Origin: Elusimicrobiota bacterium
Lineage (GTDB): Bacteria; Elusimicrobiota; Elusimicrobia; F11
Length of the DNA: 64,000 bases
Direction: 5' to 3'
NCBI GenBank assembly: GCA_044221725.1
Contig: JBGAON010000002.1
Span: 609,616 to 673,615, forward strand
Made by a program: the position numbers and the translations under genes. Positions within the stretch are counted from its first letter, which is position 1; each line of letters starts with the position of its first letter. This document shows positions 6,535-23,719 of this stretch, piece after piece. The notes under the pieces were generated by a model. The model had not been told where the DNA came from. It ran no database searches and worked only from the letters and a program-made list of their open reading frames with translations.

Positions 6535-6646
6535 TCAAAAATCGCTGGAAAAAGCACCCGCGCGATTCGACGGAGAACTGCTTCTTACACCAGCGAAGGC
6601 GTTCCGTGCAGGCGGTGCATTAGACCCTTGAATTCAGGCGAACCCT

Positions 6647-6700
6647 TTTACAAATTGTTTACGACTGCTTAATCGTTTCTTAAGCAAAAAAAACTTTAAT
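6647..6700 (+). promoter_or_regulatory. Four hexamer direct repeats at 11-bp pitch plus -10-like element (OmpR/PhoP-type operator)
   Basis: TTTACA(6647), TTTACG(6658), TTAATC(6669), TTAAGC(6680), then 9 bp, then TTTAAT(6695). Same layout occurs at 23017-23070. Confidence 0.6.
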
Positions 6701-6717: not shown

Positions 6718-9700
6718 ATGAAAAAAATTATCGCCTTCACTATTTGCTTGACGCTTGTCGTGCCAGCGACGTTCGCCGGAAAATCCGACGCGCGCGCCGA
6801 TTTCGCTTTGTCGCAACTCGCGCGTTGGGGCGATCTTACCCTTGTCGGCCCAATCTCTCGGTCCGGCCCGGTCGTTCTTTATATTAAAGACATCCATTTA
6901 AACGCGGACGTCCAATCGAATATTCAAAAGGCAATTGAGGTCTTAGGTCGGTCCGGGCGTATAGGAACGCTAGCCCTCGAAGGCGGTTTTGGCCCGATTG
7001 ATTTGCGGGAGTTTCAAAACCATCCGAACCAATCGGCAGTAAAGCGCGCGGCCATGTGCTTTCTCAAACAGAAATATATTCAGGGCCCCATTGCCGCGGC
7101 ACTAACCGCAGGACGCACAGGCTTTCAAATTCAGGGAATCGATGACCGAACCGCTTATTACGCGAACGTGGAAGCCTATCGGCAAGCAACAAAACAACTT
7201 CCGATTGCGCAAAAAGAATTGTGGCAATGGAAAAGAGAGTTGGATGCAAAAAGATCTGCACAAAAAACGGACGAGCAAGACGCGCTAGGCAACGAAGCTG
7301 ATCAGTGGCGACTGACCAAGAAATTAATCGAATTCACACTCACCAAAGAAGAATGGCACAAGCTTCGCAAAGGTCGAGTTTCCTGCCGCGCGTTCGAACA
7401 GTTTTACGAAGAGGCCGAACGCCGCGACGAAAAGATGGCCGAAAACCTCCGTCCCTTTTTGACCCGCGGAAAAATGATCGTCCTCGTGACCGGGGGATTC
7501 CACGCGAGTGGAATCGAGCAGACGCTTAAAGAATTGAAATGCACGGTTATTCAATTTGTACCCAGGATGAAATCAACCGGCGCGCTCGCCGGCTCGGACT
7601 ATCTGAACGTATTGAAGGAACCAAAAACACCACTTCAAAATTTGCTCTTCCGAAAATCACTGTTTTTACCGCCGGAAGTATGGCCCGAAGAAATGTCCAT
7701 TGCCATGAAACTCGGCGTGCAGGCAATCGAAAACGCCGCGGGCGTCGCTTCAAGAACGGTGGGGAACGCCAATGTCACGGCCAAGGTGAGCGGCGATACC
7801 ATTCGATTCTTCATTGAACGCGCGAAAGAAATTCGAAACACCGCGGAAAAAGTGAGCGGCATCGACGCCTACAGAAAAGTCTTAACGCTTCTGATCGAGG
7901 TCGGCGCACTTCCCGGGAAAGGGAGCAACGATGCGGTCGTTTCTTTCTTGAACGGGGGGGACCTTTTGCTGGCCGAGCAAATGCCCGTATTGGCTATCGA
8001 CAGACATGGCTTTAGCTTAAACGGATTGATTCAGGAATTTGAAGACGTTTCCGGATTCGATGAATCTTCGGTGCGAACGAATTTTAAAGATCCGGGTCCG
8101 ATAAATTTCGAAGAAGCGGACCGAATTGTTCTTGCGATCACGAATTTAAAGAGCCAGGGACTCAATCCGAGATTTCTTTTGTTTAAAAACACCGAGGCTT
8201 TTTTTATGAAAAACCGGGAAGCGGACGGTCTTCCGGTCGGAAGCTCACAAAAAACGTATCAACAGACGCTCGAAGAAATATTCGATCGCGCCGTGGCCGA
8301 CGACGCGACCATCATCCTGCACGAGGACCTGATGCACGGTGGAAGTTCCATAACGCAAAGGGTGCTCGCTGAGCGCGGATTTATAAATGTAACCTCTTCG
8401 CTCATCCCCGACGAAGCGCAACGCTCCCTTTATGAGGAACTCGAACACGTTCCTTTTTTCAAATTGCCGACGTCATCACTGAACGTGCCATTAATGGGCC
8501 GAATTCGAATCTACCGCAAGAAAAAAATTCCACAAAACAATGCCCCTGTCGATAAAATATCTTCTCAGTCCGACAGTGATGATGACGACAGTGGACATTA
8601 TGTTCCGGAAGCATTAGCGAAATTGATGCGCACGTATTTGCCAAGCGAGTCTCGAAATCGAGCCGCCATGGCCATCTTGTACAGGTTCGACGAAATCAAC
8701 AGTCCCGCCCGTCAAAAAACTTTTTTGGACGCTGTCGCCGTTGTTGACCAAGAAATCGCCGCCAAAATAGAACTCGCCTGCCAATCGAAGGGACAAGCGG
8801 GCAAGGAACGCTCTCGCGACAACCAATTGCAACGATTAATGTCCGATGCGAAAGCAATTCTCACGAGTGATCGAGTCGGAACATTGCCGGTTTCGCTTCC
8901 AAATACCGTGAATGTATTAACCACGCATGGATTTATGAAACAGACGGAGATGAAGTCCAAAAATGTTACGGCTCCATCTCTCGGAAAACAGGAAAAGTAT
9001 CGCCTTGCCGATATCGCCCGTGAAACCGGATTGGACAAATTGCCCGGATACAAGCAAATGCTATTGCGCCTGATTAGCTCGCGAACTCTTCCCTACGATC
9101 GACGCACCGACTCCATATTCCTCGGTGATGCACTGAAAATTGGCAGACTGCTAAACGCATTGAATAAAGACGAATATACATTGGCCGAGGTGATCGCGCT
9201 CGCAGACGCAACAGTTGATGATACGACGGCGCGTCAGCTGTACGATTCACTTCTGGAAGAAAAGTTCAAAGCCCCAGACATCCTCGCGAAAAACAGAACT
9301 TTGCAAAAGACGGATGCGTTTGCTCTGGCCTTTCAGTTAACAGTGATTGAAAATTTTAAGGATCCAAAGCCTTATCGCGACGTGCTTCAAGCTATTGGCT
9401 GGCCCGAAACGGCATATTCGCTGCACACTTTCTTCAGGATTTTTCCATCGCATCGCCAAAACGGTGATATCGTTTGGGTCCGGCTCGGAAAAGCCGTGCG
9501 TGTGAACAAAGAGAGCGCAAAAGCACTTTTCGAAGAAACACTCGCGGAAGTCGCCAAAGAATCAAATCGGATCGGCCAGGAATTCGTGTTGCTTTCGCAA
9601 GCGTTCAAAGAAATAGGCAAAAAACTCACGTGGCACAATCTCAAGTTGAGATTGAAGAACAAAGGCCTCGCGAAAGATGTAAGGATAATTGGATCTCTCC

Positions 9701-9828
9701 ATTTTATTACGCGCCGAGCGGTGGAACGGCTGAGGCAATCCGGCACACGTTCCGACCTGAGTTCTCCGTTCGCGAAAAAAGTCCAATCTGATAATCGGGC
9801 AAAAAAATCCGCCGAACAATCGGCGTAA
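6718..9828 (+). CDS. Large exported protein, paralog 1: conserved N-terminal module (to ~aa 320) plus variable C-terminus with HTH-like units
   Basis: Signal peptide MKKIIAFTICLTLVVPATFA. Motifs IKDIH, LEGGF, GIDD..Y.ANV.AY, FYEEAERRDEKM, VTGGFH and KTPL..L....LFLPP are shared with the 16492-23010 protein. Confidence 0.8.
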   Translation: MKKIIAFTICLTLVVPATFAGKSDARADFALSQLARWGDLTLVGPISRSGPVVLYIKDIHLNADVQSNIQKAIEVLGRSGRIGTLALEGGFGPIDLREFQNHPNQSAVKRAAMCFLKQKYIQGPIAAALTAGRTGFQIQGIDDRTAYYANVEAYRQATKQLPIAQKELWQWKRELDAKRSAQKTDEQDALGNEADQWRLTKKLIEFTLTKEEWHKLRKGRVSCRAFEQFYEEAERRDEKMAENLRPFLTRGKMIVLVTGGFHASGIEQTLKELKCTVIQFVPRMKSTGALAGSDYLNVLKEPKTPLQNLLFRKSLFLPPEVWPEEMSIAMKLGVQAIENAAGVASRTVGNANVTAKVSGDTIRFFIERAKEIRNTAEKVSGIDAYRKVLTLLIEVGALPGKGSNDAVVSFLNGGDLLLAEQMPVLAIDRHGFSLNGLIQEFEDVSGFDESSVRTNFKDPGPINFEEADRIVLAITNLKSQGLNPRFLLFKNTEAFFMKNREADGLPVGSSQKTYQQTLEEIFDRAVADDATIILHEDLMHGGSSITQRVLAERGFINVTSSLIPDEAQRSLYEELEHVPFFKLPTSSLNVPLMGRIRIYRKKKIPQNNAPVDKISSQSDSDDDDSGHYVPEALAKLMRTYLPSESRNRAAMAILYRFDEINSPARQKTFLDAVAVVDQEIAAKIELACQSKGQAGKERSRDNQLQRLMSDAKAILTSDRVGTLPVSLPNTVNVLTTHGFMKQTEMKSKNVTAPSLGKQEKYRLADIARETGLDKLPGYKQMLLRLISSRTLPYDRRTDSIFLGDALKIGRLLNALNKDEYTLAEVIALADATVDDTTARQLYDSLLEEKFKAPDILAKNRTLQKTDAFALAFQLTVIENFKDPKPYRDVLQAIGWPETAYSLHTFFRIFPSHRQNGDIVWVRLGKAVRVNKESAKALFEETLAEVAKESNRIGQEFVLLSQAFKEIGKKLTWHNLKLRLKNKGLAKDVRIIGSLHFITRRAVERLRQSGTRSDLSSPFAKKVQSDNRAKKSAEQSA

Positions 9829-9847
9829 CACCTAAAACCAAGTCCGT

Positions 9848-9876
9848 TTGACGGCTTTGGTTGCGTTTGCTACAGT
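9848..9876 (+). promoter_or_regulatory. Sigma70-type promoter for HAD-purA-carAB
   Basis: TTGACG(9848)-N17-TACAGT(9871) with an extended TGn; followed by a small C(TTCG)G hairpin at 9885-9900. Confidence 0.55.
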
Positions 9877-9917
9877 TCCGCAACGCTCGCTTCGGTGAGC
9901 TCGCCCTGACAAACCCC

Positions 9918-11818
<1,901 letters not shown>

Positions 11819-11829
11819 CGTGTCGTGAA

Positions 11830-11902
11830 CGTCATCCTGGCATGTCGTTCACCAGGATCCAATTTAAAAATGGGCTTTGGATAGAGACATTCCAGGGCGA
11901 CG
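11830..11902. repeat. Palindromic element family A, copy 2 (opposite orientation to copy 1)
   Basis: cgtcatcctggcatgtcg..ccaggatccaatttaaaaatgggctttggatagagacattccagggcgacg, between purA and carA. Confidence 0.85.
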
Positions 11903-11912
11903 GCCTCCATTT

Positions 11913-13097
11913 ATGAAAAACAGAACAAAAGGTTATTTAGCGCTCGCCACCGGAAAAATTTTTCAGGGCTGGTGTTTCGGAGCAGAACCATCGGAAAAAT
12001 CGGGAGGCGAGGTGGTCTTCAACACCTCTCTGAGCGGTTATCAAGAAATTCTCACGGACCCATCCTATCAAGGACAAATCGTCGCGATGACGCCCTCGCA
12101 CATTGGAAACTACGGCGTAAATCCAGACGACGTGGAGTCCGGAAAAATTTATCTCTCGGGCTTTATCGTTCAAGAGGAGAGCAATCTTTATTCGAATTGG
12201 CGCGCGACGGGCAGCTTGAATGATTATCTCGCATCCGCCGGCGTAGCGGGACTCACCGGCGTCGACACGCGCGCACTGACACGCTACCTCCGCACGCAGG
12301 GTGCTGTAAGCGGAATCATCTCGAACAACGGCCGCGACCCAAAAGCGTTGATCAAACAGGCGAAAGCGGTGCCGTCACTCGAAGGACTGAATTTGGCGTC
12401 AATGGTATCCACGGCGGAAAAATACAACTGGAACAAAGGCAGCGAAGCGAATGCTGTTCGACCAAACAAGAAAGTTGTCGTGATGGATTTTGGTGTGAAA
12501 CAGAATATTTTGCGTTGCCTTGTGGATCGCGGTTGCGAAGTGACGGTGGTTCCGTCCACAACCTCAGCCGATGAAATTCTCAATGAAAATCCGGATGGGG
12601 TTTTGTTCTCCAACGGGCCCGGCGATCCGGCCGTCGTGAAAGATGGCATCAAGACAATTGAAAATCTTATCAAGCACAGTACCGACCAGAAAGAAAAAGG
12701 GGAAAAGCCAGTCGCGCTCTTCGGAATCTGCCTGGGACACCAATTGATGGGATTGGCTCTCGGTGGGAACACCTATAAATTGAAGTTTGGACATCACGGT
12801 GCGAACCATCCGATTAAGGATTTGGAAACCGGACGCGTCGACATTACGGCTCAGAACCATGGTTTCTGCGTGGAAGGTCAAAAAACGGCGAAAGGCGAGT
12901 GGATTGTAAAAGGAAACAAGGATGCGCTTGTTACGCACATCAATTTGAACGACAACGCAATCGAAGGCCTTCGCCACCGCACGCTTCCGCTGTTTTCGGT
13001 TCAATATCACCCGGAAGCCTCTTCGGGGCCGCACGATGCCAACCATTTGTTCGATCGATTCTTAAACTCAATGGAGAAGGGTCGTCACGCTGGCTAA
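11913..13097 (+). CDS. carA: Carbamoyl-phosphate synthase small subunit
   Basis: GEVVFNT, GYQEILTDPSY, SNGPGDP, GICLGHQ and VQYHPEA motifs. Start set at MKNRTKG because the longer ORF begins inside the repeat. Confidence 0.96.
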   Translation: MKNRTKGYLALATGKIFQGWCFGAEPSEKSGGEVVFNTSLSGYQEILTDPSYQGQIVAMTPSHIGNYGVNPDDVESGKIYLSGFIVQEESNLYSNWRATGSLNDYLASAGVAGLTGVDTRALTRYLRTQGAVSGIISNNGRDPKALIKQAKAVPSLEGLNLASMVSTAEKYNWNKGSEANAVRPNKKVVVMDFGVKQNILRCLVDRGCEVTVVPSTTSADEILNENPDGVLFSNGPGDPAVVKDGIKTIENLIKHSTDQKEKGEKPVALFGICLGHQLMGLALGGNTYKLKFGHHGANHPIKDLETGRVDITAQNHGFCVEGQKTAKGEWIVKGNKDALVTHINLNDNAIEGLRHRTLPLFSVQYHPEASSGPHDANHLFDRFLNSMEKGRHAG

Positions 13098-13114
13098 AAC
13101 GTGCCAGGATGACG
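13083..13114. repeat. Palindromic element family A, short copy overlapping the carA stop
   Basis: cgtcacgctggctaaaacgtgccaggatgacg; supplies carA RHAG*. Confidence 0.65.
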
Positions 13115-13122
13115 AATAAAAT

Positions 13123-16100
13123 ATGCCAAAAAGAACTGATATAAATAAAATTCTCATCATCGGCTCCGGACCCATAATTATCGGTCAAGCCTGCGAGTTC
13201 GATTACTCCGGAACGCAAGCGGTGAAAGCGCTGAGAAAAGAGGGATACAAAGTTGTCCTTATTAATTCGAATCCCGCCACGATAATGACGGACCCGGAAT
13301 TGGCCGACGCCACCTACGTGGAACCGCTCACGGCCAAAGTTCTTGAAGCCATCATTGAAAAGGAACGTCCGGATGCGCTGCTTCCAACGCTTGGCGGACA
13401 AACCGCATTGAATCTCGCGGTGGCTGTCGCGAAAAACGGTGTGCTTGAAAAATACGGCGTCGAAATGATCGGCGCGAACTTGGAAGCAATTGAGAAAGCG
13501 GAAGACCGCCGTTTGTTCAAAGCGGCCATGGAAGAGATTGGGCTCGATCTACCGCGCAGCGGTTTCGCAAAAACACTCACCGAAGCAGAAGAAATCGCGC
13601 AGCAAGTTGGCTTTCCTCTCATTATTAGGCCTTCCTTTACGTTGGGGGGAACCGGCTCAGGCCTTGTCTACACACGCGAAGAATTTTTGAAAGCCGCCGC
13701 AAAGGGATTGGATTTAAGTCCGATTTCTGAAGTTCTCATTGAAGAGTCTCTCGAGGGATGGAAAGAATACGAACTCGAGGTGATGCGCGACAAATCCGAC
13801 CAGTGCATCGTTATATGTTCGATTGAAAACGTTGATCCACTCGGCGTGCACACCGGTGATTCGATTACCGTTGCTCCGGCCATGACGCTCACGGACAAGG
13901 AATATCAAAAAATGCGCGACCAGGCGTTCGCGTGTATCCGCAAAATTGGCGTGGAAACCGGTGGATCGAACATTCAATTTGGTCTTAATCCAAAAACGGG
14001 TCGCATCATTGTGATCGAAATGAATCCACGTGTGTCGCGATCCAGCGCGCTCGCTTCCAAAGCGACCGGCTTCCCGATCGCAAAACTCGCGGCTCTGCTG
14101 GCGGTCGGTTACCGTCTGGACGAGATTTCAAACGATATCACGAAGAAAACGCCCGCGTGCTTCGAACCAACGATCGATTACACGGTCGTTAAAATTCCTC
14201 GTTTCGCGTTCGAGAAATTCTCGGACAGCAATCAACAGCTCGGTACGCAAATGAAATCGGTCGGCGAAGTAATGGCCCTCGGCCGAAATTTTAAAGAAGC
14301 GCTGCAAAAGGCCTTCCGCGGCCTCGAAATCGGTCGCGCTGGCCTTGGTTCCGACGGAAAATCGTTCAACCCGGCCGTGGATCAAGCCCTTGAGGCAAAA
14401 AAGGAAATGACGCCCGAGGCGTGGAGCCAAAAATACGAAGCCGTGGTTCAGTTGTTGCGCGACAAAATCCGGATTCCGAATTCGGATCGACTGTTCGCAC
14501 TGAAGGCGGGCCTTAAGCTCGGCCTCACACGCGATGACATTTTCAATCTTTCGAAAATTGATCCGTGGTTTATTGCGCAAATCGAAGAGTTGGTTCACTT
14601 CGAAGAATATTTGGTGGAGTCCCTCGCCAGCAAACATGAGGGATCAAAAAGCATTCAAGGCGACGTGTTACGCGAAGCAAAAAAACTTGGATACTCCGAC
14701 ATTCAACTGGGTTACTTGTTGGGTCAAACGGAAAAACAAATCCGAGCGATCCGAAAGAAATTGAAAATCGAACCCGTTTACAATTTGGTGGACACCTGCG
14801 CAGCGGAATTTGAAGCGCACACTCCTTATTATTACTCGACGTACGGCGAAGAGAACGAGACAAAGCCGTCCAAGAAAAACAAGGTAATGATTTTGGGGGG
14901 AGGTCCCAACCGCATCGGCCAGGGAATTGAATTTGACTACTGTTGCGTGCACGCGGTTCTCGCGTTGCAAGAAGAAGGCTATGAGACGATCATGGTGAAC
15001 TGCAACCCTGAAACCGTCTCAACGGACTATGATACGGCCGACCATTTGTATTTTGAACCGCTGACGCTCGAAGACGTGTTGAATATTGTTGAGCGCGAGA
15101 AACCGAAAGGACTGATTGTCCAATTCGGCGGGCAGACCCCACTCAATTTGGCGTTACCGTTGGAGGCGGCCGGTGTAAAAATTTTGGGTACGTCCCCGGA
15201 CTCTATTGATCTCGCGGAAGACCGCGAGCGATTTGGTCGCTTGCTCAACAAATTGCAGATTCCGCAGCCGGCGCATGGAATGGCGCACAGTTTCACCGAA
15301 GCGAAAGAAGTTGCCACGCGTATCGGATACCCGGTCATGATTCGCCCGTCCTATGTTCTCGGCGGTCGCGCAATGGAAGTTGTGTACGACGACGCAATGC
15401 TCGAATCGTATATCCTGCGCGCAACATCGCTTTCTTCCACACATCCCGTTTTGATTGATCGCTTTCTTGATAACGCGCTCGAAGTGGATGTGGACGCTTT
15501 GTCTGATGGAACGGATACCTACATCGGTGGCATCATGGAGCACATTGAAGCGGCCGGAATTCACTCGGGCGACTCCGCCTGCATGATTCCGCCACGCAAA
15601 TTGAACAAGGAATCGCTCGACACCATTGTGAGCTACACAAAAACGTTGGCGAAGGCGCTTAAGGTAAAAGGCCTCATGAACATGCAGCTCGCTTTGAAAG
15701 ACAACGTGGTGTACGTGCTCGAGGTAAATCCGCGTGCGAGCCGCACCGTGCCGTTTGTTTCAAAAGCGACAAACGTTCCGCTCGCCAAGCTCGCGGCAAA
15801 GCTCATGATGGGAAAAAAACTTTCTCAAGTTTTACCGAAGCACGTGCTCGGAAAAGATTTTGTAACGCCATGGACCTCGGTAAAGGAAGCCGTGCTTCCG
15901 TGGACACGATTTCCCGGCGTGGACGCGGTGCTGGGTCCGGAAATGCGCTCCACCGGCGAAGTAATGGGAATTGCTGACAATTTTTCTGCAGCTTATGCGA
16001 AGTCACAGGCCGCCGCCAACTCGCCGCTTCCAACGAAGGGAAAAGTGTTGATCAGCCTCAAGCGCAATAACCGCGAACGCGTCATTGATATCGCGCGCAA

Positions 16101-16482
16101 ACTTCACCAATTGGGATTGGGAATTCTTGCCACCGAGGGAACCGCGCTCACGTTCCAAGGAGCCGGCATCCCGGTCGAAATCGTGAAAAAAATTGAAGAA
16201 GGTCGACCAAACGTGGTCGATATCATCACCAACAAAGAAGTGGCCTTCGTGATCAACACTCCGTCGGGCGCGAGCTCTCGCAAAGATGGTTTTGCGATCC
16301 GTAATGCCGCGCTGGGTGCGGGCGTACCGATCATCACCACGGTGGCCGCGGCCGCCGCGGCCACCGAAGCCATTGAATCCATGCAGAAGGAAGATTGGAC
16401 CATCCGCTCGTTGCAGGATTATTACGCTTCGCTCAAAACGAAAGCCAGCAACACACCAAGTAAAACAAAAGTTCGCGCGTAA
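13123..16482 (+). CDS. carB: Carbamoyl-phosphate synthase large subunit
   Basis: [24 protein letters not shown] start, two ATP-grasp halves, C-terminal MGS domain. Confidence 0.98.
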
Positions 16483-16491
16483 GCTGGGTTC

Positions 16492-19400
16492 TTACACCTG
16501 TCGCAAGCGGACGCGTATTCGCTCAAACGTCGCCGGATCTTTAAGTTGTTTTGCGGTCGCTGCAATCGATTCCAAAGCACCTATGATCATCACCACGATA
16601 TTTTCGTCGTGATCGTCATCGCCAAATTCAACCGAAACTTCCTCTGAGGTCACAATGCGATGAAGATGGGACGATGGATTCCATCCGCGAATCGTCCGCA
16701 TCACGGCACACAGCTCCGCAAAGGGCACGATCGAGTTCGCGAGCAACCCTTTCCGATTGTTCGCTCGAATAAACACACCGGCGTGATTCCGGAACGTGCT
16801 GAGGGTATTCAATTCCTGCGCCGTCCGGCCATCTTCCGTGATCACGTAGATGTATATGGGACGTTCCACGGAAGCCGATGCAACCATCGCTTGAATCGTG
16901 TGCAACATTTGGCGTTTGCGGTTTTCTTTAAGTAGCACGACCACGTTCGTGGGCGTGCCATGCACAAACGGAACCACATTCCCATCGATGTCTTGAATAT
17001 CTCTTCGGTGAGAAGCTTCGGTGAGATCCAGCGCCGGATTTTCGTCGACCGCATGCATGGTCGTCGCAGCGGCGAACCTTTCCGAGTTTGTTTTTTTCGA
17101 CCGTTGAGGCGGCCGAACGGGAACCATGTTTCCTTTTTCATCCAGTTCGGTGACGTCACCAAACGCAAAGCTCAGATTTATTTGTAGTTCGTTTGAAAGA
17201 TGCGAAAAATCTGGAAGCGGCTGATTGTTTGTTCGGTACCTACCATTTTCAACACTGAAGTAGTTCGGCAAGCCAAGAAGAAACATGGCAATTCCAAGAC
17301 GCTCGAACGGCGTGACGAGTTGAAACTGCGTCGCCAGATCTTCAACCGAATAGGTCCGCCCATTGTTCATCAATTCCACAAGTATTTCCATTTGCGCGCG
17401 ATGATCGCGGAGCAATTCCGAAATTGCCTTTTTTGCCACAAATTCCATGGCGTTCGAGCTGCGGGGAAATCGAAAATCGGGCCCCATATCCAATTGATCC
17501 ACTATCGATTGAAGAGAGATGCGATGGCGGTTTGTGTCATGCGCGTACTGCACATCGGCCACACCGGAACGACCAAATCGTCGTTGGATGGCGCCCACCG
17601 CGAACGGATTATTTATGCGCGTAAACACAATGCTTCGCTCGGAAATATGGTGAACCGGCGGATGCGATAAAACAAGCGTCAGTTGCTGCTCGCCCCAGAG
17701 CCGCAACCATCGACGGATGGCCGTGAAAAATTCGACTCTTGGAACGGGAATCGATTCTCCAACCACCGGAACAATTGGCTCGTACGAACGGAGGCGAGGA
17801 TCCGTGGCCAAAGCGACGCTCCGACTTAGTTCGCCGTGAACAACGGCAACCTTCCGGGGATTCACGGACCGCACGTATTGCACCAACTCCTCGCCGCTCG
17901 CATGGCCGCTTAACTGGAATGAAAAAATATCCGACCGCAAACGAATTGAGGTTCCGTTTTTGATGAGAATATCATCGCCCTTCTGTGCGCTTAAGATTCG
18001 TGAACCCAGTCCGCTTTCCGGCTGATAGTTCACGAAGCCCAGAACATTATGTGAATGCGCCAGCGTGCGCGGCAAGTAATCCATGATCGCTGAACGCGAC
18101 TGCAACATCCCGGACGTCGCCAACAATATAATCGGTCGTCCGTCGTTTCTTTCCAACCGTTGAAGAACTTTGTTTCGGCCGATTCCCGTTCGTTTCGACT
18201 TCAAATCAAACACGCGGTCGGACTCTTTAATATCAAGTTGATAGAGCTCGTTGAGACTTCCTATCGATCCATCGATGTAAATATCAACGTCGGCCGGAAG
18301 GACGCGCTTTTTCCTCGCGGCAAGAAGTTCAAGCAACAGTTCTTGAGAGCGTCCCAATCCGAGCACGGGGAAAACGACATTCTTGTTGGCCCGCACGGCC
18401 CCCGCCGTGGTATCGATCAGTCGACCAACTTCGTGCGCGCGGCTGCGGTAATCGGTACCGCCGTAGGTGCTTTCGACTATCAACAGATCCGGAGATTCGT
18501 GCGGAAATTCCGCGCCTTCGACGGTCGCTTGATTCTGCAAAAACAAATCGCCGGAAACCGTCACGACACCGGTGATGCTTCCCAGTTCAACCGTGGCCGC
18601 ACCGCGAAGATGACCGGCCCGGTGAAATAAAAGCCACGCTTTTTTTCCAAGTTTTCTTTTTTGACCAAACTCGAGTGGGGTGAGGTAGTGCAGCGTATCC
18701 GTAATATCGGTTCCGGTGACGCCATAAGGCCGCAACGATTGATTTTGCATGCGCAAGTTGGGATGCATCAATTGGATCGTCTCGGGCGTTGCGTAAATCG
18801 GAACATGACGCCCTTTTTCGCGGAGCAACTTGTGCAGCAACGGCAAACTGCCGATGTGATCCAAATGAGCGTGCGTAATAATTATGAAGTCGATATCGTC
18901 GGGAATCATTGAAAAGTCGGGGACGGGACTTTCACTTCCGACGGCGAATCCAACGTCCACCACGCCTTTTACTCCTCCAATCGAAACAAGATGACAACTG
19001 GCTCCGACGGAGCGGGTCCCACTCACGGTCGTCACCAGCGGCGCATCGGGCACCCAGCTTCGCATCCACGGAGAGAGCGGAATTCTTAGCGACACGGAAG
19101 CGAGCACAACCATGGTCACGAGAAGATCATTAATCCGTGCCGCAAATCGGAACGTGTTGACGCGCTTCGAATGCAACCACGGCACCACGGCTTCGGTATT
19201 TTCCTGAAGCCATGGCAAAACGAAACTAAAGAAGCCGAGACTCCTGTTCACTTGAACATGTTCTTTAAGGATTTCCAGAACGATTGGAATTTGGAGTGTG
19301 GCGTGAATGGCGACAACGAAACAAAAAGCAACATCCGTATTCACAAGGAGCGATAGAGAAGAATAGACGACGTTCAGAAGGGAGCCAACGAGAAGAGAAC

Positions 19401-22400
19401 GTAGAAGAACGCGCGCCACGGAACTATCTGTTGCGACCTTTTTTCGATAAAGCGCCTTCGCAATCCAGAAAGAGAGCGCATGCGAGAATCCAAAAAGAAG
19501 AGACGCCGTTAAAATTCTTTCGGCCAGTACCAAAAACAGTCCCAATCGCAACGGCGCGTCCAGCAACATCGCTTGGAACAATCTCGTTTCGAGAAATGGC
19601 GCCGTTACGAACAACACGCCCACCGCGTAAAACAGAAACAACGCGTTGGATCCACCCACGAACCACCGGCGCACAAGCGGATCAAACACGAAGTTCGCCG
19701 GAGTGTCACCGCTCTTTGGCGGTGCAAGCTCGTCATCCGACGCGCGCTCAAGCGCCGAGGTCTTCGACCATTCGAACAACTTTCGCGGATGGGCGTTAAC
19801 GAGACAAGCCACCTGGCGGACAAGATCTCGCGCCTGTCCTCCATAGAATTGGGATAGAACAATAAGCGCAACTTCTCCCGAAAATTGATGAGAACCGTCG
19901 GCGCCCAAAAAATCGTTAACGATCTCTCGTAACACAAATTGCTGCGCACGCGGACTTTTTGCTGAGAGAAACAACCGAATTTTGGCATGCGATTCCATTG
20001 TGTTCATCGCAAGCGCGTCAAGGTTGACAGGGCGACTCTCGATCATTTCGATGATTGCAACGGCCACCGCCCGATAAATGGTCAGATCGAAATCATTTCC
20101 AAAAATCGACGCGACGACATCGCGAATGAAAATTTTTGGTTTGTTTGCGATATCTTTGAACCGACTGGATTGCTCAATGTGGAGCCATTCTTCTGCAAGT
20201 GTCATCTCACGATTCAATCGGACATACACGTTCCACGGAAGACCTACCGCCCAATTCAACAATGGGACGAAAAACGGGCTCTCGGCAAACATGTTTCCGA
20301 ACGATTTTGCTTTTAGGGGATAGGCATGTCGATCGTAGGACAACAAAATCTCCTTAAAGCCATCGGTGCATCCGAGTTGAGACGTATTCATCAAACCTTT
20401 TTCGTCATCAATCACAGCGGTGATCACTGTTCCTCCGGGTCCATTCGTGATATCGAAGAAGTGAACACGCGCAAAACCAAAGCGGTTATCGTTGAAACCA
20501 AAATACCAGCCGTGCTCAAGAAAATACGCCTGATTGACTACTTGCACAAATTCCGAAGCCTTAATATTCCGATCGACCGCCGCCACACCAATTAACTTCG
20601 CCAGCTGATTCACGTCTCGAAAAAACTTTTCCTTCAGGTCGGGTTCAACTTCTGAGTTTCTCCATTCATCGAGGTCCATCTGCATAACGGCGATCTGATC
20701 CAGGATTTCACTGGGCAAATTTTCCAATGGATGGGAGGGTTTAAGCCTGGGCCAAGCGTGACCCCAGACTTCGGGCTTGTAACGAACGAGAACGGTCCTC
20801 TTGGGTGTTTTGTTTTTTTTGCGGGTTTTTATCGGCGGTGGAAAGCCCGCAAAACCCAGCAGTTGCTGCTTCGTTAAATCGAGATTAAGCGTGTCGTCTC
20901 CAGAAAAGAAGTTGCGAAACGTCGGCTTAATTTCTTCTTTGATTTGAACATGGATTTCATACAGATTGACAGAGCCGCCCAGCCTGTACACATCCAACTG
21001 CAAATCGTGCTTATCAATCGCAAACGGCTTGAGAAATGAGGCGACTTCAGAGTGAAGCGCGTTGGAAAACCGTTCCGTGTAATTGTTTTCGGCAAGAAAC
21101 AAATCATCGATAACAGCTTTGAAATCCGGGGGGTTCAGCCAGTTTCCTTGAAAATAAAGTTGAACGGGATCTTTAATCGGCGGGAGTCCGATTTTCCGAT
21201 TAAGCGTTCGGCGAGCCAAATCGCGTCCCGGATGATTTTGCAAATAGCGCAGGACATCTCGAATCCCTGCATCGTCATCGAGCGAAATATCGGCCAGCGG
21301 ACGACCATTGAACTCCGCGAGCGTTCGCGTGACAGCCGGTGCGTTTCTCTGTTTGGCAGAAACGGTTCCTTCTTTGATGTCGACTGATTCAATTTTTTCT
21401 TTTGTGCCTTCGATGTCGACCTGCACCGTTGTATCCGTCGGCCCTTTCCATTCTGCCTTCGTGCTTCCGTCAGAGATTTCGCGATTCTCGAGTATCGGAG
21501 ACGAATTCGAAAAGATTTCGCCGGCGGCAGCCACGGGATCTCTCGCGAGCGATGCTGCGGTTAAGCCGAGGTCCGGCAGTATCGCCTTTTGTAGCGGAGC
21601 CAGGAAAAGCGCTTGGCCATTAAAAAACTTTTCGAGCGGCGTCCTCTTTTGCGCGAATTCCGAAAGATAGGCGGCACCACGAGAGATATCCACCTTTGTT
21701 ACACGCGGAGTGAATTGAATGACGTCGTATCCTGCCGCCGAAAGTTTTTCGGATATCCCAGAAGAATGGAAACCACCAGCAACGAGGACAAAGGTGCCTC
21801 GGACAGCGTACGTCGTACGTCGGATCCGATCAAAAAGATTCTGTGCCATAGCGGCATCTCGCTTCTCTGCGACCTCATAAAACGACTCGAACGGCGCTAG
21901 GTTACCCGTCCGTCGTGGGAGGTACGACGTACGAAGTACGTTGTAATCCTTCCACTCCGCAGCGCTCAGCGAAAAATTCACAAGTTTCTTTGTAAACGCT
22001 AGCGCCTTCGCTTCGCGGACGGTTTTTCGCTCCAGCTCCGTTCGCGTGAGGATTTGGTACGCGTGCGCCTCTGCTCGGCTCATCTCGTCAAAAAGTTTTT
22101 CAGCGGAAATTCGCTCCGACAGCTTTATGTAGCGCGCGTAAGATTCCAGCAATGGATAGTTTGAAAGTTTTCTCGTGGATGAATGGACATACGCGCGCCG
22201 TTCGACTTCAACTTTCGAAAAATCGAGCGCCGATTCCAACGCAAACGCTTCGAGAAAATTGTTTATTTGCTCGCACGACCGGGGGGAAAACAATTTTAAG
22301 GCCGCTAGATAAGCGCCGATCCGAATTTTTCCTTCGCGGTAGGCTTCCACTTGCAAATCAAACATCGCGAGTTTCGGGTTAAATTCTTTCTTTGCTCGCG

Positions 22401-23010
22401 CAATTTCGTTGGACCGCGCCGCTATTTCCTTTTCGATGGCACCGACCTGCTCGCGTGATTCGAGATAAGCATGAACGTTCGCTTGGTACAAGGACGCATC
22501 ATCAACACCGACAATCGCTGGAAAAGTTTTGCCGGATAAAATCCCCGCGTGCATCGCGCCGGACAACTTCCCGACACGAAGGTAATAATCCGCCACGCTG
22601 CGAAGCACCGCCGGTTCCGAAAAATACTGAAACGGTTTCAATTGAACCGGATCAAACGCCCCTTCGAGGAAAATCTTTCGGGCGCCTTTGTCGACGAGAT
22701 ACCGAACGGCGGAGGCAATGTTGCGCTGGGCTTCAGAATTCGCGTGAATATCTTGAATCAGATACACGGTCCCCGCAGACGCAGCGGTTGGTTTCTTTAT
22801 TGATCGGATGAATCCATAGGCTTGCAGACCAGGAAGGGGGGAAATTGTTTTCACCGCGACGGACGATAACAACGATGATCGGTGTTGACCCAACGCCTGC
22901 CGCTCGGCCCAGAAATTCAACTCTGGTTTCGCTCCGAACGTCGTTTCAGCGCCTATTATTAAGGAAAGTACAGCGGCGATCGCCCGCCGCAGGAACGTCT
23001 TTTTAAGCAT
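16492..23010 (-). CDS. Giant exported/membrane protein, paralog 2 (2172 aa): conserved N-terminal module, unknown region, CPBP-like TM segment, MBL/beta-CASP ribonuclease domain, unknown tail
   Basis: Signal peptide; IQDIH, LEGAF, GVDD..Y.ANV.AY, FYEVAEKRDAAM and VAGGFH motifs. RNase motifs THAHLDHIGSLP, AGHLRGAA, SGD, VESTYG, LGRSQE, TSGML, LSGHA and VVHGE at ~17740-19035. Confidence 0.82.
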   Translation of the reverse strand: MLKKTFLRRAIAAVLSLIIGAETTFGAKPELNFWAERQALGQHRSSLLSSVAVKTISPLPGLQAYGFIRSIKKPTAASAGTVYLIQDIHANSEAQRNIASAVRYLVDKGARKIFLEGAFDPVQLKPFQYFSEPAVLRSVADYYLRVGKLSGAMHAGILSGKTFPAIVGVDDASLYQANVHAYLESREQVGAIEKEIAARSNEIARAKKEFNPKLAMFDLQVEAYREGKIRIGAYLAALKLFSPRSCEQINNFLEAFALESALDFSKVEVERRAYVHSSTRKLSNYPLLESYARYIKLSERISAEKLFDEMSRAEAHAYQILTRTELERKTVREAKALAFTKKLVNFSLSAAEWKDYNVLRTSYLPRRTGNLAPFESFYEVAEKRDAAMAQNLFDRIRRTTYAVRGTFVLVAGGFHSSGISEKLSAAGYDVIQFTPRVTKVDISRGAAYLSEFAQKRTPLEKFFNGQALFLAPLQKAILPDLGLTAASLARDPVAAAGEIFSNSSPILENREISDGSTKAEWKGPTDTTVQVDIEGTKEKIESVDIKEGTVSAKQRNAPAVTRTLAEFNGRPLADISLDDDAGIRDVLRYLQNHPGRDLARRTLNRKIGLPPIKDPVQLYFQGNWLNPPDFKAVIDDLFLAENNYTERFSNALHSEVASFLKPFAIDKHDLQLDVYRLGGSVNLYEIHVQIKEEIKPTFRNFFSGDDTLNLDLTKQQLLGFAGFPPPIKTRKKNKTPKRTVLVRYKPEVWGHAWPRLKPSHPLENLPSEILDQIAVMQMDLDEWRNSEVEPDLKEKFFRDVNQLAKLIGVAAVDRNIKASEFVQVVNQAYFLEHGWYFGFNDNRFGFARVHFFDITNGPGGTVITAVIDDEKGLMNTSQLGCTDGFKEILLSYDRHAYPLKAKSFGNMFAESPFFVPLLNWAVGLPWNVYVRLNREMTLAEEWLHIEQSSRFKDIANKPKIFIRDVVASIFGNDFDLTIYRAVAVAIIEMIESRPVNLDALAMNTMESHAKIRLFLSAKSPRAQQFVLREIVNDFLGADGSHQFSGEVALIVLSQFYGGQARDLVRQVACLVNAHPRKLFEWSKTSALERASDDELAPPKSGDTPANFVFDPLVRRWFVGGSNALFLFYAVGVLFVTAPFLETRLFQAMLLDAPLRLGLFLVLAERILTASLLFGFSHALSFWIAKALYRKKVATDSSVARVLLRSLLVGSLLNVVYSSLSLLVNTDVAFCFVVAIHATLQIPIVLEILKEHVQVNRSLGFFSFVLPWLQENTEAVVPWLHSKRVNTFRFAARINDLLVTMVVLASVSLRIPLSPWMRSWVPDAPLVTTVSGTRSVGASCHLVSIGGVKGVVDVGFAVGSESPVPDFSMIPDDIDFIIITHAHLDHIGSLPLLHKLLREKGRHVPIYATPETIQLMHPNLRMQNQSLRPYGVTGTDITDTLHYLTPLEFGQKRKLGKKAWLLFHRAGHLRGAATVELGSITGVVTVSGDLFLQNQATVEGAEFPHESPDLLIVESTYGGTDYRSRAHEVGRLIDTTAGAVRANKNVVFPVLGLGRSQELLLELLAARKKRVLPADVDIYIDGSIGSLNELYQLDIKESDRVFDLKSKRTGIGRNKVLQRLERNDGRPIILLATSGMLQSRSAIMDYLPRTLAHSHNVLGFVNYQPESGLGSRILSAQKGDDILIKNGTSIRLRSDIFSFQLSGHASGEELVQYVRSVNPRKVAVVHGELSRSVALATDPRLRSYEPIVPVVGESIPVPRVEFFTAIRRWLRLWGEQQLTLVLSHPPVHHISERSIVFTRINNPFAVGAIQRRFGRSGVADVQYAHDTNRHRISLQSIVDQLDMGPDFRFPRSSNAMEFVAKKAISELLRDHRAQMEILVELMNNGRTYSVEDLATQFQLVTPFERLGIAMFLLGLPNYFSVENGRYRTNNQPLPDFSHLSNELQINLSFAFGDVTELDEKGNMVPVRPPQRSKKTNSERFAAATTMHAVDENPALDLTEASHRRDIQDIDGNVVPFVHGTPTNVVVLLKENRKRQMLHTIQAMVASASVERPIYIYVITEDGRTAQELNTLSTFRNHAGVFIRANNRKGLLANSIVPFAELCAVMRTIRGWNPSSHLHRIVTSEEVSVEFGDDDHDENIVVMIIGALESIAATAKQLKDPATFERIRVRLRQV

Positions 23011-23016
23011 AGAAGA

Positions 23017-23070
23017 AGTATCTCAAAGTCCGGTTAAAGCAGCCTTAACGACTTGTAAATTTGTTGTAAA
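23017..23070 (-). promoter_or_regulatory. Four hexamer direct repeats at 11-bp pitch plus -10-like element upstream of the giant gene
   Basis: Minus strand: TTTACA(23070), TTTACA(23059), TTAAGG(23048), TTAACC(23037), 9 bp, GATACT(23022-23017), 6 bp, ATG. Confidence 0.6.
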
Positions 23071-23120
23071 AGACACCAATTAAAAACCGATTTAGTCTCT
23101 TCTCTCGTTCAAATTTCTGC

Positions 23121-23149
23121 TTGACGCACCCATGGGTAGTAAATACAAT
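23121..23149 (+). promoter_or_regulatory. Sigma70-type promoter of nrdR-nrdJ-dcd
   Basis: TTGACG(23121)-N17-TACAAT(23144). Confidence 0.7.
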
Positions 23150-23156
23150 TCCGCCA

Positions 23157-23173
23157 ACAACTACAGGTTGTAC
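23157..23173 (+). promoter_or_regulatory. Putative NrdR box
   Basis: acaactacaggttgtac: dyad ACAAC/GTTGT matching the CwAnAnnTwG core of the NrdR-box consensus, at the predicted transcription start. Confidence 0.55.
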
Positions 23174-23191
23174 CAAGAGGTCGAAGGCATA

Positions 23192-23719
23192 ATGAAATGC
23201 CCCCACTGCAATCATCCTGAAGATCACGTTATTGATTCGCGTCCGGTAGAAACCGGCAATGTCATTCGCCGTCGTCGCGAATGCATGCTCTGTGAAAAGC
23301 GGTTTACGACGTATGAACGCCTCGAAGTCATGCCCCTCATTGTTTTAAAGTCCGACAACCGACGGGAGCCGTTCGATCGAGAAAAACTTCGCGAAGGAAT
23401 CTCCCGCGCTTGCAAACACCGCAGCATCACGGCCGAACAAATTGAGAAACTCGTCACCGATGTGGAAACCTCCTTACAAGAAGACTTCGTGATGGAAGCG
23501 CCGAGCAAATCGATCGGCGAACGCGTGCTCGCGAAATTGAAAGATTTGGATCACGTGGCATACATCCGGTTTGCGTCCGTCTACAAGCAGTTCTCCGATG
23601 TGGACAGTTTTTTCCACGAAATCCGCGGTTTGAAACACGAACAAAAGATCAAGAACCGCAAAAATAATCCAATCGACCTATTGGCCACGTTTCTGAACGA
23701 ACCCACCGCTAAAAACTAA
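23192..23719 (+). CDS. nrdR: Transcriptional repressor NrdR
   Basis: MKCPHC..VIDSR..IRRRRECMLCEKRFTTYE zinc ribbon plus ATP cone ending AYIRFASVY. Confidence 0.96.
   Translation: MKCPHCNHPEDHVIDSRPVETGNVIRRRRECMLCEKRFTTYERLEVMPLIVLKSDNRREPFDREKLREGISRACKHRSITAEQIEKLVTDVETSLQEDFVMEAPSKSIGERVLAKLKDLDHVAYIRFASVYKQFSDVDSFFHEIRGLKHEQKIKNRKNNPIDLLATFLNEPTAKN

Follow-up and report, generated by a model that had tools for sequence, protein, structure and literature searches.

Polymorphic toxins such as those of the CDI, Rhs and MafB systems, like the MARTX toxins, couple a constant trafficking part to exchangeable effector modules, with cargo of several domains that may include an autoprocessing protease. 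How huge proteins are made, exported and controlled in Elusimicrobiota and Omnitrophota, both described as rich in uncharacterised examples (PMC11573180), is the wider question addressed here. We analysed a 64,000-nt stretch of an Elusimicrobiota bacterium (GenBank assembly GCA_044221725.1, contig JBGAON010000002.1, positions 609,616–673,615 of the forward strand), hereafter the window, to which all unprefixed coordinates refer. It holds two genes, A (6718–9828, + strand, 1036 aa) and B (16492–23010, − strand, 2172 aa), whose products an earlier reading of the letters alone (the sequence-only reading) had taken for a polymorphic exported-protein system with a constant N-terminal module and swappable cargo. 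The host genome, G000, comprises 2.82 Mb in 5 contigs and is 94% complete; G001 and so on denote the other genomes compared, and labels of the type L001–L026 denote paralogues or loci.

A and B belong to a large family whose genes combine a four-repeat promoter, a signal-like N-terminus, a head domain of Tiki fold, a body of captured enzymes and regulators of cytoplasmic type set between CPBP-like anchors of four transmembrane (TM) helices, and an amphipathic Ala-ended tail. The family co-occurs with, and is genetically linked to, a second FtsH-type protease (FtsH2), a lipoprotein (X) and often a TolC/AcrB/AcrB set.

Head, body and tail of the family

BLASTP aligns A and B in two colinear segments (33% identity over 124 aa, E 5e-17; 35% over 162 aa, E 2e-21), and every motif of the colinear series picked out by the sequence-only reading was recovered in its place. 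The similarity ends as abruptly as that reading had claimed, at A319/B472 (window 7674/21595) in the LFL.P motif; past this point BLASTP gives no match better than E 1.3 and the two proteins are unrelated. Both start with a basic n-region followed by a hydrophobic h-region, in keeping with the signal peptides proposed for them, and a crude n/h-region rule is passed by 24 of the 26 paralogues in the host genome.

These 26 head genes encode 775–8,862 aa each and 60,316 aa in total, 6.4% of the genome. Head matches, which are not copy numbers, occur in 22 of 41 genomes (the host and 21 of 40 relatives) at 15–43 per genome. The predicted paralogous family with diverse C-terminal parts is thus there, and A and B are not two lone copies with fixed orthologous C-termini. 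Within a sample of 161 genomes of the phylum the head was found in 53, with frames of 10,000–12,000 aa in a few relatives. A library search among 1.84 billion representatives returned 9,590 head clusters at E≤0.001. The named loci kept from a genome scan were all from Elusimicrobiota (78/78), more distant head homologues bear Omnitrophica, FCPU426 and Firestonebacteria labels, and the three nearest Atlas clusters are mostly from Omnitrophota. At source, family members are named 'hypothetical protein'.

The head was modelled with AlphaFold2 (AF2; predicted local distance difference test, pLDDT, 86). In VIA-align, five Tiki-clan rows, EreC (Z 9.2), ChaN (9.0), the Bcr succinoglycan protein (Bcr136-type; 8.7), HopBA1 (8.5) and Bcr135 (8.1), take ranks 1–4 and 6 of 48,161 chains, with root-mean-square deviations (rmsd) of 3.6–5.7 over 148–175 residues, and Foldseek likewise puts EreC and Bcr135 on top, weakly (E 0.013–0.07). 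The single Z values are only middling; we assign the Tiki fold because one clan clusters at the top. The model has the parallel beta-sheet core with flanking helices seen in Ere, ChaN and HopBA1, and its catalytic residues sit at strand ends. Across heads of 35% mean identity, D87, H89, E116, R384 and H415 (B numbering) are invariant in 26 of 26, with a spacing that agrees with the 2His/2Glu+Arg site described for the Tiki endopeptidase RRSP (E3900/H3902/E3930/R4001/H4030; PMC6254334). Model, structural ranking and catalytic set agree on the TraB/TIKI/ChaN/EreA-like fold that the sequence-only reading had suggested, and fold, invariant residues and RRSP-like spacing make the head probably an active hydrolase. 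The Pfam models for ChaN (PF04187) and TraB (PF01963) score below their curated cut-off (A 18 and B 16.2 bits against 27.7), only L023 of the other 24 paralogues passes it (30.4 bits, over a 49-residue stretch), and a head profile run against Protein Data Bank sequences gave no meaningful match, the best (E 0.002) falling on a helical stretch. The helical insert described for B is present there and missing from A; it is, however, the family norm, and A is among the members lacking it.

Head and chain can also occur apart. Five proteins of 559–613 aa in G043, G044 and G048 are stand-alone heads with the signal, the FW.ER motif and the catalytic set, and without the tail. The host genome also encodes a headless, Pfam-dark giant of 8,369 aa (G000:C5:256705-281814, L126–L127) with the family signal, two promoter copies and the Ala tail; it directly follows a TolC/AcrB/X/AcrB operon, and similar N-termini follow this operon in G004 and G008. 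Stand-alone heads and a headless giant would suit a processing or export module able to act in trans. One of the stand-alone head genes immediately precedes the gene of an Ala-ended giant, and these small proteins are good candidates for biochemistry. An HExxH motif stands shortly before the tail in both the headless giant and the 8,862-aa family member.

The exchange of bodies is clearest at the site between carB and nrdR, where B resides. G001, of the same genus, has a 3,300-aa member there in B's orientation and under the same promoter. Its head is the sister of B's among 28 heads (support 99/99), and the two proteins are 40% identical up to aa 549 of B; B's last ~170 aa are homologous to the G001 tail (25%, E 8e-8), and the middle is without homology, with GNAT and ARMT1-like cargo in G001. 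Because a sister head and a homologous tail enclose an unrelated middle, cargo has been swapped at this site: the body is replaced, and head and tail are kept. The same site carries an unrelated 411-aa gene in G002 and is empty in G003 and G007. By eye the 411-aa gene (L116:2212-3447) is OmpA-like, so the site also accepts unrelated envelope genes. The A site holds a member from another head subclade in G002 (97/86); in G003 it holds a long protein that ends in Ala and contains SecA and LuxR domains, and in G007 it is empty. Genes beside the variable sites are 74–91% identical in relatives while the bodies differ. Occupancy of the two sites varies among these relatives, which bears out the dispersed, variable insertion among housekeeping genes noted beforehand. 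GC content and GC at third codon positions are only slightly lower in A and B than in their neighbours, and so give no sign of recent foreign origin.

Pfam recognises cargo in 14 of the 26 paralogues and none in the other 12. The host's set comprises adenylate kinase, dehydroquinate synthase, HD, 2-hydroxyacid dehydrogenase, hexokinase, GH18, PP2C/FHA, WD40, protein kinase, sigma70, glycogen synthase, phosphorylase, GGDEF, uridine kinase, a weak metallophosphoesterase match and the nuclease of B; in relatives, 18 family proteins scanned add SecA, GNAT, methyltransferase and inositol phosphatase. Cargo is 24–41% identical to the host's own copies, and the bodies are almost unrelated among themselves. 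An RNase and helix-turn-helix (HTH)-like units had been read as cargo. The RNase proved to be a metallo-beta-lactamase/beta-CASP nuclease in B with all metal motifs kept (HAHLDH, AGH, SGD, ESTYG, SGHA and VHGE) and 23% identity to the host's own paralogue. The HTH units of A were dropped for want of support, with no Pfam match at E≤1 and no internal repeat. A's body recovered only itself among 8,000 scored candidates of 569–1,813 aa, neither body had a family homologue in the five relatives searched, and B's body matched only housekeeping nucleases, in three of the five.

A crude hydropathy scan predicts at least one TM helix after the head in 99 of 102 Ala-ended members, making most of them polytopic. 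Within the bodies, a four-TM module with a CPBP/Rce1 pattern gave 57 matches in 48 of 231 proteins and none in reversed sequences. PF02517 matched two of eight modules tested, both in L004, at E 0.001–0.002, which is below its cut-off. The full EExxxR/FxxxH/HxxxN set occurs in modules of L004, whereas most modules, that of B included, have a degenerate first motif. For the module of B, Pfam was negative, an iterative hidden Markov model (HMM) seeded on it found nothing, and an HMM of RAPP-containing modules reached B only at E 1.4; its CPBP reading rests on the motif pattern. The Lys/Arg content of the module flanks and middle loop (0.15–0.16) exceeds that of the last loop (0.05), and the flanks look cytoplasmic by the positive-inside rule. 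No TM helix was predicted between head and first module in 15 of 40 members; cargo precedes any TM helix in L002 (HD) and L007 (SpoIIE), and the uridine kinase of L024 sits in a TM-free chain. Head and cargo would often seem to lie on one membrane face, an odd arrangement beside a cleaved Sec signal and one that a plain periplasmic-sensor layout does not fit. Some internal segments resemble whole signal peptides with A-x-A ends (L006 near aa 641, 821 and 1206; L011 near aa 671), one of them directly before a GH18 domain, and may mark signal-peptidase cuts inside a polyprotein.

The bodies are also rich in RAPP and RGPP, motifs described as stalling ribosomes and as strongly excluded from bacterial proteomes (PMC12992588). 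Family bodies contain 43 such motifs in 349,362 residues, whereas the remaining host proteins contain 2 in 735,140. Among anagram controls, ARPP, GRPP, PPRA, PPRG, RPPA and RPPG occur 0–5 times each, PRAP 3 and PRGP 8 times. The motifs fall between TM helices at 21 of 41 sites, compared with 55 of 1,040 random positions.

At the other end of the chain, the last residue is Ala in 21 of 26 paralogues against 150 of 1,545 other genes (Fisher p 8e-17), B being the sole paralogue to end in anything other than A, S or G. Ala-ended members (n=124) share an amphipathic end, R-x-[IVA]-[AL]-x-[AQS]-A, which resembles the end of the tag, ANSQEMALAA, encoded by the host transfer-messenger RNA (G000:C3:323574-323925). 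FtsH is described as acting on ssrA-tagged substrates and on others with C-terminal degrons (PMC8138137). An HMM built from the tails of 78 Ala-ended library proteins did not recover the host genome's own tails, the domain being too divergent, so that our claim for the tail is limited to the terminal Ala bias and the B/G001 pair. The proposal of a constant N-terminus and a variable C-terminus stands for the head and needs amending for the rest: with Ala ends in 21 of 26 paralogues and homologous B and G001 tails, C-termini are not wholly free, and the variable part is the middle.

A common promoter and linked partner genes

A shared promoter had been proposed for A and B, and both do have the same four-repeat element upstream, TTACA-N6-TTAC-N7-TTAA-N7-TTAA, with an 11-bp period (score 620 against 250–284 in three control sets). 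A scan of the genome found 39 sites, compared with 4 and 0 in two shuffles; 25 of the 39 belong to family genes, which trained the matrix, and 14 to other genes. The latter include two Pfam-dark giants, of 8,369 and 18,006 aa, FN3/FG-GAP and PKD proteins (the PKD protein bears a Pfam type-IX sorting tail), three PorV/UPF0164-like genes, a TPR protein and a histidine kinase. One site heads an operon of PorV-TPR, TPR, TolC, AcrB, X and AcrB, which is kept together with its promoter in all three other f1 genomes fetched. In most family genes a TAnAAT-like box precedes the start codon by only 6–9 bases (window 23011–23030 for B), a distance that suggests leaderless mRNAs.

Some further observations concern the promoter and its genes. 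The 18,006-aa exported protein (L130–L132, G000:C2:219210-273230) has no Pfam match, almost no TM helices and, by eye, YD-like beta repeats. A 321-aa gene resembling an insertion sequence (IS), which we take to be of the IS30 type, lies directly upstream of two family genes (G000:C2:188164-189129 and C1:244467-245432), and for this reason the DNA in front of both is identical as far as the promoter; L014 is preceded by a related fragment. Type-IX-like tails are many in the host genome, alongside several PorV-like genes; a search for the type-IX protein SprA found no match, and neither did its controls.

The two partners, FtsH2 and X, are single-copy genes. FtsH2 carries Walker A and B, the pore loop, the second region of homology, HExxH…D and a TM anchor with an AAA domain, with HExxH in 10 of 10 sequences aligned; it is, judged by these motifs, catalytically intact. 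Its identity to the housekeeping FtsH is ~39%, and it has no periplasmic domain. X has a lipobox-like Cys and two alpha/beta domains (model pLDDT 91). Its top VIA-align row is domain 2 of PrgK (Z 8.5, rmsd 3.4 over 85 residues), tied with KH-II and OsmC-type rows, and Foldseek gave nothing at E≤0.001; a PrgK-like, ring-building identity is a lead only.

Of 41 genomes, 39 agree in the presence or absence of X and of the head. X was found in 63 of the 161 genomes of the phylum sample: by the first head profile, 50 had head and X, 3 the head only, 13 X only and 95 neither, and after a second head profile was run on 28 chosen genomes, which rescued G051, the counts were 51, 3, 12 and 95. Ten of the 12 X-only genomes are 1.0–1.4 Mb genomes of one genus. 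FtsH2 occurs in 73 of 161 genomes, among them 47 of 53 head-positive and 26 of 108 head-negative ones, and is on the latter count broader than the family; it accompanies X in 60 of 63 genomes. In family f25 the same two of eight genomes have head, X and FtsH2. Genus g45 (0.6–1.4 Mb genomes) has the head in 9 of 21 genomes, with 1–6 matches, X in 19 of 21 and FtsH2 mostly kept, as if substrates decayed before the machinery. From its small genomes and the names of X homologues we infer that g45 consists of protist endosymbionts (for Endomicrobiaceae genome sizes, see PMC11257099).

Linkage points the same way. Outside f1, X adjoins FtsH2 in 9 of 9 loci. Among 20 FtsH2 loci fetched, 14 came from head-positive genomes; of these, 13 have X next to FtsH2, 6 have a head gene no more than four genes away and 5 have TolC or AcrB. 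FtsH2 stands without X in three head-negative genomes (G027, G040 and G090). The FtsH2 and X genes often lie inside head-gene arrays or inside the TolC/AcrB operon with the same promoter. On an Omnitrophota contig (L188:6918-9432) the pair sits side by side between enolase and an Rnf-like operon. A metagenome scan with an FtsH2 alignment mostly found ordinary FtsH: among the matches listed, 3 of 79 loci were FtsH2-like, two of the three with X adjacent, and none of the 79 had a head gene in the fetched flanks.

Two small genes recur beside these partners. In four genomes the gene of a ~142-aa exported protein separates X from the next head gene (L167:10593-11051, L169:11322-11747, L170:4939-5418, L178:10703-11128). 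G000, G004 and G008 share a conserved membrane protein of 126–142 aa, encoded on the opposite strand where the AcrB operon ends (L140:11105-11530, − strand), and a similar gene lies near TolC in G031.

Features of A and B and of their surroundings are collected in Table 1. Parts of A and B are spanned by near-identical contigs from three runs of a single metatranscriptome study, at low, even cover for which DNA carry-over is possible. Divergent from A, a 758-aa exported or membrane protein (window 4258–6534) has a weak amylase C-terminal match only; its G007 homologue abuts the HAD gene, which marks the A site there as empty. Further along, window 51285–56078 encodes a 1,597-aa exported protein with carboxypeptidase-regulatory repeats and a FlgD-Ig/type-IX-like tail.

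Table 1. Positions of features of genes A and B, the flanks of their variable sites, and stand-alone head proteins (HSP, high-scoring segment pair)
Feature	Position	Strand	Basis or note
Four-repeat promoter element of A	6644..6683	+	43.9 bits
Signal-peptide-like N-terminus of A, aa 1-20	6718..6777	+	sequence, crude n/h rule
Head of A, aa 46-319, Tiki/EreA/ChaN fold, without helical insert	6853..7674	+	D58, H60, E88, R236, H262
Orphan body of A, Ala tail ...AEQSA	7675..9828	+	no predicted TM helix, Pfam match or homologue
HAD hydrolase gene, conserved flank of A's variable site	9861..10523	+	
carB, conserved flank of B's variable site	13123..16482	+	83-90% identical in G001, G002, G003, G007
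C-terminal tail domain of B, ~aa 2004-2172	16492..17001	-	25%, E 8e-8, tail against tail of syntenic G001 gene
Metallo-beta-lactamase/beta-CASP ribonuclease cargo of B, aa 1335-1756	17743..19008	-	Pfam, motifs
Four-TM module of B, CPBP/Rce1-like pattern (E.., FGFSH, HATLQ), first catalytic motif degenerate	19261..19680	-	pattern match
Soluble region of B, aa 550-1110, without assignment	19681..21363	-	no Pfam match at E<=1, no congener homologue
Post-head stretch of B, aa 473-549, common to syntenic G001 gene; swap point beyond	21364..21594	-	HSP aa 7-549, 40%
Head of B, aa 75-472, Tiki/EreA/ChaN fold with helical insert	21595..22788	-	D87, H89, E116, R384, H415
Signal-peptide-like N-terminus of B, then family FW.ER motif	22927..23010	-	sequence, crude rule
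Four-repeat promoter element of B; -10-like box and start codon close behind	23034..23073	-	43.4 bits
nrdR, conserved flank of B's variable site	23132..23719	+	
Stand-alone head proteins	L266:7145-8983; L267:6849-8531; L268:6556-8361 and 9714-11390; L269:7641-9338		

Proposed mechanism and its alternatives

We tentatively favour, at something under even confidence, the reading that A and B belong to a system of polymorphic polyproteins, present in Elusimicrobiota and related to others in Omnitrophota, which makes effectors for prokaryotic partners or prey and in which disposal by FtsH2 through the Ala tail takes the place of immunity genes. The proteins would then be a variable effector arsenal directed at prokaryotic partners, hosts or prey. 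Signal and head would engage an export route associated with X and the RND pump, the head or the CPBP modules may process the chain or its anchor, and RAPP/RGPP could pause translation while TM modules are handled. The ssrA-like Ala tail (…MALAA) would let FtsH2 destroy copies left on the cytoplasmic face, a single route protecting against any cargo. Such a route would explain why no immunity genes are present: as the sequence-only reading had observed for A and B, no immunity-like gene follows members, whose downstream neighbours are mostly housekeeping, opposite-strand or family genes (crude gene caller, listing frames of at least 80 aa). A eukaryotic target, which WD40, Ser/Thr kinase and hexokinase cargo might suggest, ranks lower: cargo such as sigma70, GGDEF and SecA indicates bacteria, and in genus g45 the family is sparse or was not found. 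A bolder version is unlikely in our judgement: an undescribed export class of Elusimicrobiota and Omnitrophota in which a ring-forming X acts with FtsH and AcrB/AcrB/TolC on giants marked by the head and the ssrA-like tail, RAPP paces synthesis, head and CPBP modules cut, cargo (sigma factors, nucleases, kinases, sugar enzymes) is delivered into prokaryotic hosts or prey and FtsH2 replaces all immunity genes.

Several results weigh against an effector system protected by FtsH2. FHIPEP, VipB and VirB4, markers of type III, type VI and type IV secretion systems, had no match in the 94%-complete genome, and secretins, found in 41 of 41 genomes, do not discriminate. The genome does have type IV pili, a small cluster resembling a type II secretion system (T2SS), PorV-like genes and RND/TolC; no RND/TolC pump is known to export large proteins. 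A, with no TM helix after its signal, could meet FtsH2 only before export, B lacks the terminal Ala, the stand-alone heads lack the Ala tail, and R[AG]PP is absent from both A and B. Many cargos are ordinary metabolic enzymes rather than toxins. X persists in 12 genomes without a head found, and FtsH2 is present in 26 of 108 head-negative and missed in 6 of 53 head-positive genomes. In the host itself FtsH2 lies 44 kb from X with no promoter match. The co-occurrence counts overstate their weight, since kin are not independent and part of the agreement is shared descent; 6 of the 14 head-positive FtsH2 loci were picked because coordinates suggested adjacency, and all TM counts come from the crude hydropathy scan.

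The chief alternative is that these are resident inner-membrane polyproteins whose cargo works in the producer's cytoplasm, whose head senses or hydrolyses an envelope signal, and whose turnover or release is regulated by FtsH2 and X in a manner like regulated intramembrane proteolysis. We consider this possible and rather doubtful. TM segments in 99 of 102 Ala-ended members, cargo that keeps its catalytic motifs (B's beta-CASP nuclease), an FtsH2 that faces the producer's cytoplasm, CPBP modules with the full EExxxR/FxxxH/HxxxN set in L004 and the want of an injection system among those searched (FHIPEP, VipB, VirB4) all speak for it, as does the interpretation of Omnitrophota giants as inner-membrane-anchored multi-enzyme proteins (10.64898/2026.06.07.730766). 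Against it stand bodies that lack conservation even within a genus whose neighbouring genes stay 74–91% identical, and cargo that duplicates host functions at 24–41% identity; TM-free members and cargo before the first TM helix exist, and head and cargo apparently share a membrane face in many members.

A variable surface coat, decoy or adhesin, in which displayed chains use captured folds as fast-changing binding scaffolds rather than enzymes, would account for the extreme divergence, for the 12 of 26 members without Pfam cargo and for a promoter common to FN3/FG-GAP and PKD surface proteins and PorV-like genes. We think it improbable: B's nuclease motifs are intact, cargo is mostly nucleotide- or cofactor-dependent, and the invariant catalytic head and the FtsH2 linkage would be left unexplained. 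Less probable still is a selfish or mobile chassis of promoter, head and tail that spreads as a unit and traps neighbouring gene fragments to little benefit, which variable occupancy of the same intergenic sites, the other-subclade head at the A site in G002 and the IS-like 321-aa gene directly upstream of two members might suggest, but which is at odds with frames of up to 8,862 aa that stay open over 6.4% of the genome, a single-copy lipoprotein and protease that track the family, the absence of a transposase from the unit and a head of hydrolase rather than nuclease or recombinase fold.

Comparison with known systems

The tentative effector reading invites comparison with polymorphic toxins and MARTX, with which the family shares a constant N-terminal module and an exchangeable effector region. 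It differs in that the variable part is internal and bounded by a constant tail, whereas polymorphic toxin systems have the toxin domain at the extreme C-terminus; no immunity gene or orphan cassette array follows the genes, the family showed no RTX, FHA or Rhs repeats, and the cargo is largely metabolic. The system would work like a polymorphic effector system but falls outside that class on account of its internal cargo, its constant tail, the lack of an immunity gene and the lack of a known secretion partner among the markers searched (FHIPEP, VipB, VirB4). Should FtsH2 read the tail, a polymorphic arsenal would have one general rule of self-protection in place of the pairing of one toxin with one immunity protein.

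Each component also has a described counterpart. OmpR-family regulators have tandem operators, such as the PhoP/Pho, PmrA and CpxR boxes. The family promoter recalls these in its direct repeats, its 11-bp spacing and its place just upstream of a −10-like box; it differs in having four half-sites of two types and in a regulon of giant exported proteins and envelope export genes. The head matches the Tiki hydrolases (EreC/Bcr135, ChaN, TraB/PrgY, HopBA1, RRSP) in its parallel-sheet core and in DxH…E…R…GGFH, close to their ExH…E…R…H, but has a large helical insert, is usually an N-terminal fusion on giant polymorphic proteins and is mostly sub-threshold in Pfam. FtsH2 has the catalytic motifs of FtsH (PF00004 and PF01434), and the family tail ends like an ssrA tag, one of the FtsH degrons beside LpxC; as a second paralogue without a periplasmic domain, paired with lipoprotein X, it departs from the usual form. 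Arrest peptides (ApdA, ApdP and SecM-like, as described in PMC12992588) share RAPP/RGPP with the family, where the motifs stand beside membrane segments and are nearly absent elsewhere in the proteome; in the known cases they lie near the C-terminus of small upstream open reading frames, here they lie deep in giants between predicted TM helices. If put to internal use here, motifs that proteomes otherwise exclude would gain a new role, that of helping to build giant membrane proteins.

The giants of Omnitrophota ('Archaeovorins'; 10.1101/2023.11.21.568195 and 10.64898/2026.06.07.730766) are the nearest relatives in build. As described there, they too have a signal and many TM helices, carry starch synthase, hexokinase, WD40, GGDEF, HD, GNAT and SecA cargo and begin with a region without known domains, and a link to that phylum exists in an Omnitrophica homologue of the head (P0323, E 3e-40) and in the FtsH2–X pair of the Omnitrophota contig. 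They are longer (10–147 kaa against 0.8–12 kaa for the family), being recognised by at least 10,000 aa and a flanking T2SS or pilus locus, whereas family genes lie dispersed in 15–40 copies and, in the host genome, encode 775–8,862 aa without flanking T2SS or Tad loci. The main text of 10.1101/2023.11.21.568195 contains neither 'Tiki' nor 'TraB', and 10.64898/2026.06.07.730766, in the part available, describes no conserved head, tail, promoter or FtsH partner. Among the top results of broad literature searches we found no description of the head family or of the FtsH2–X pair; supplements of the giant-protein papers may list such domains. Set beside these described systems, the present one is real, previously undescribed and new in its anatomy, and its mechanism is a proposal. 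It offers fixed handles on huge proteins, namely a head with five invariant catalytic residues, a tail, a promoter, a candidate stalling motif and two partner genes present as single copies, each small enough to be tested in laboratory strains with no need to culture the organism.

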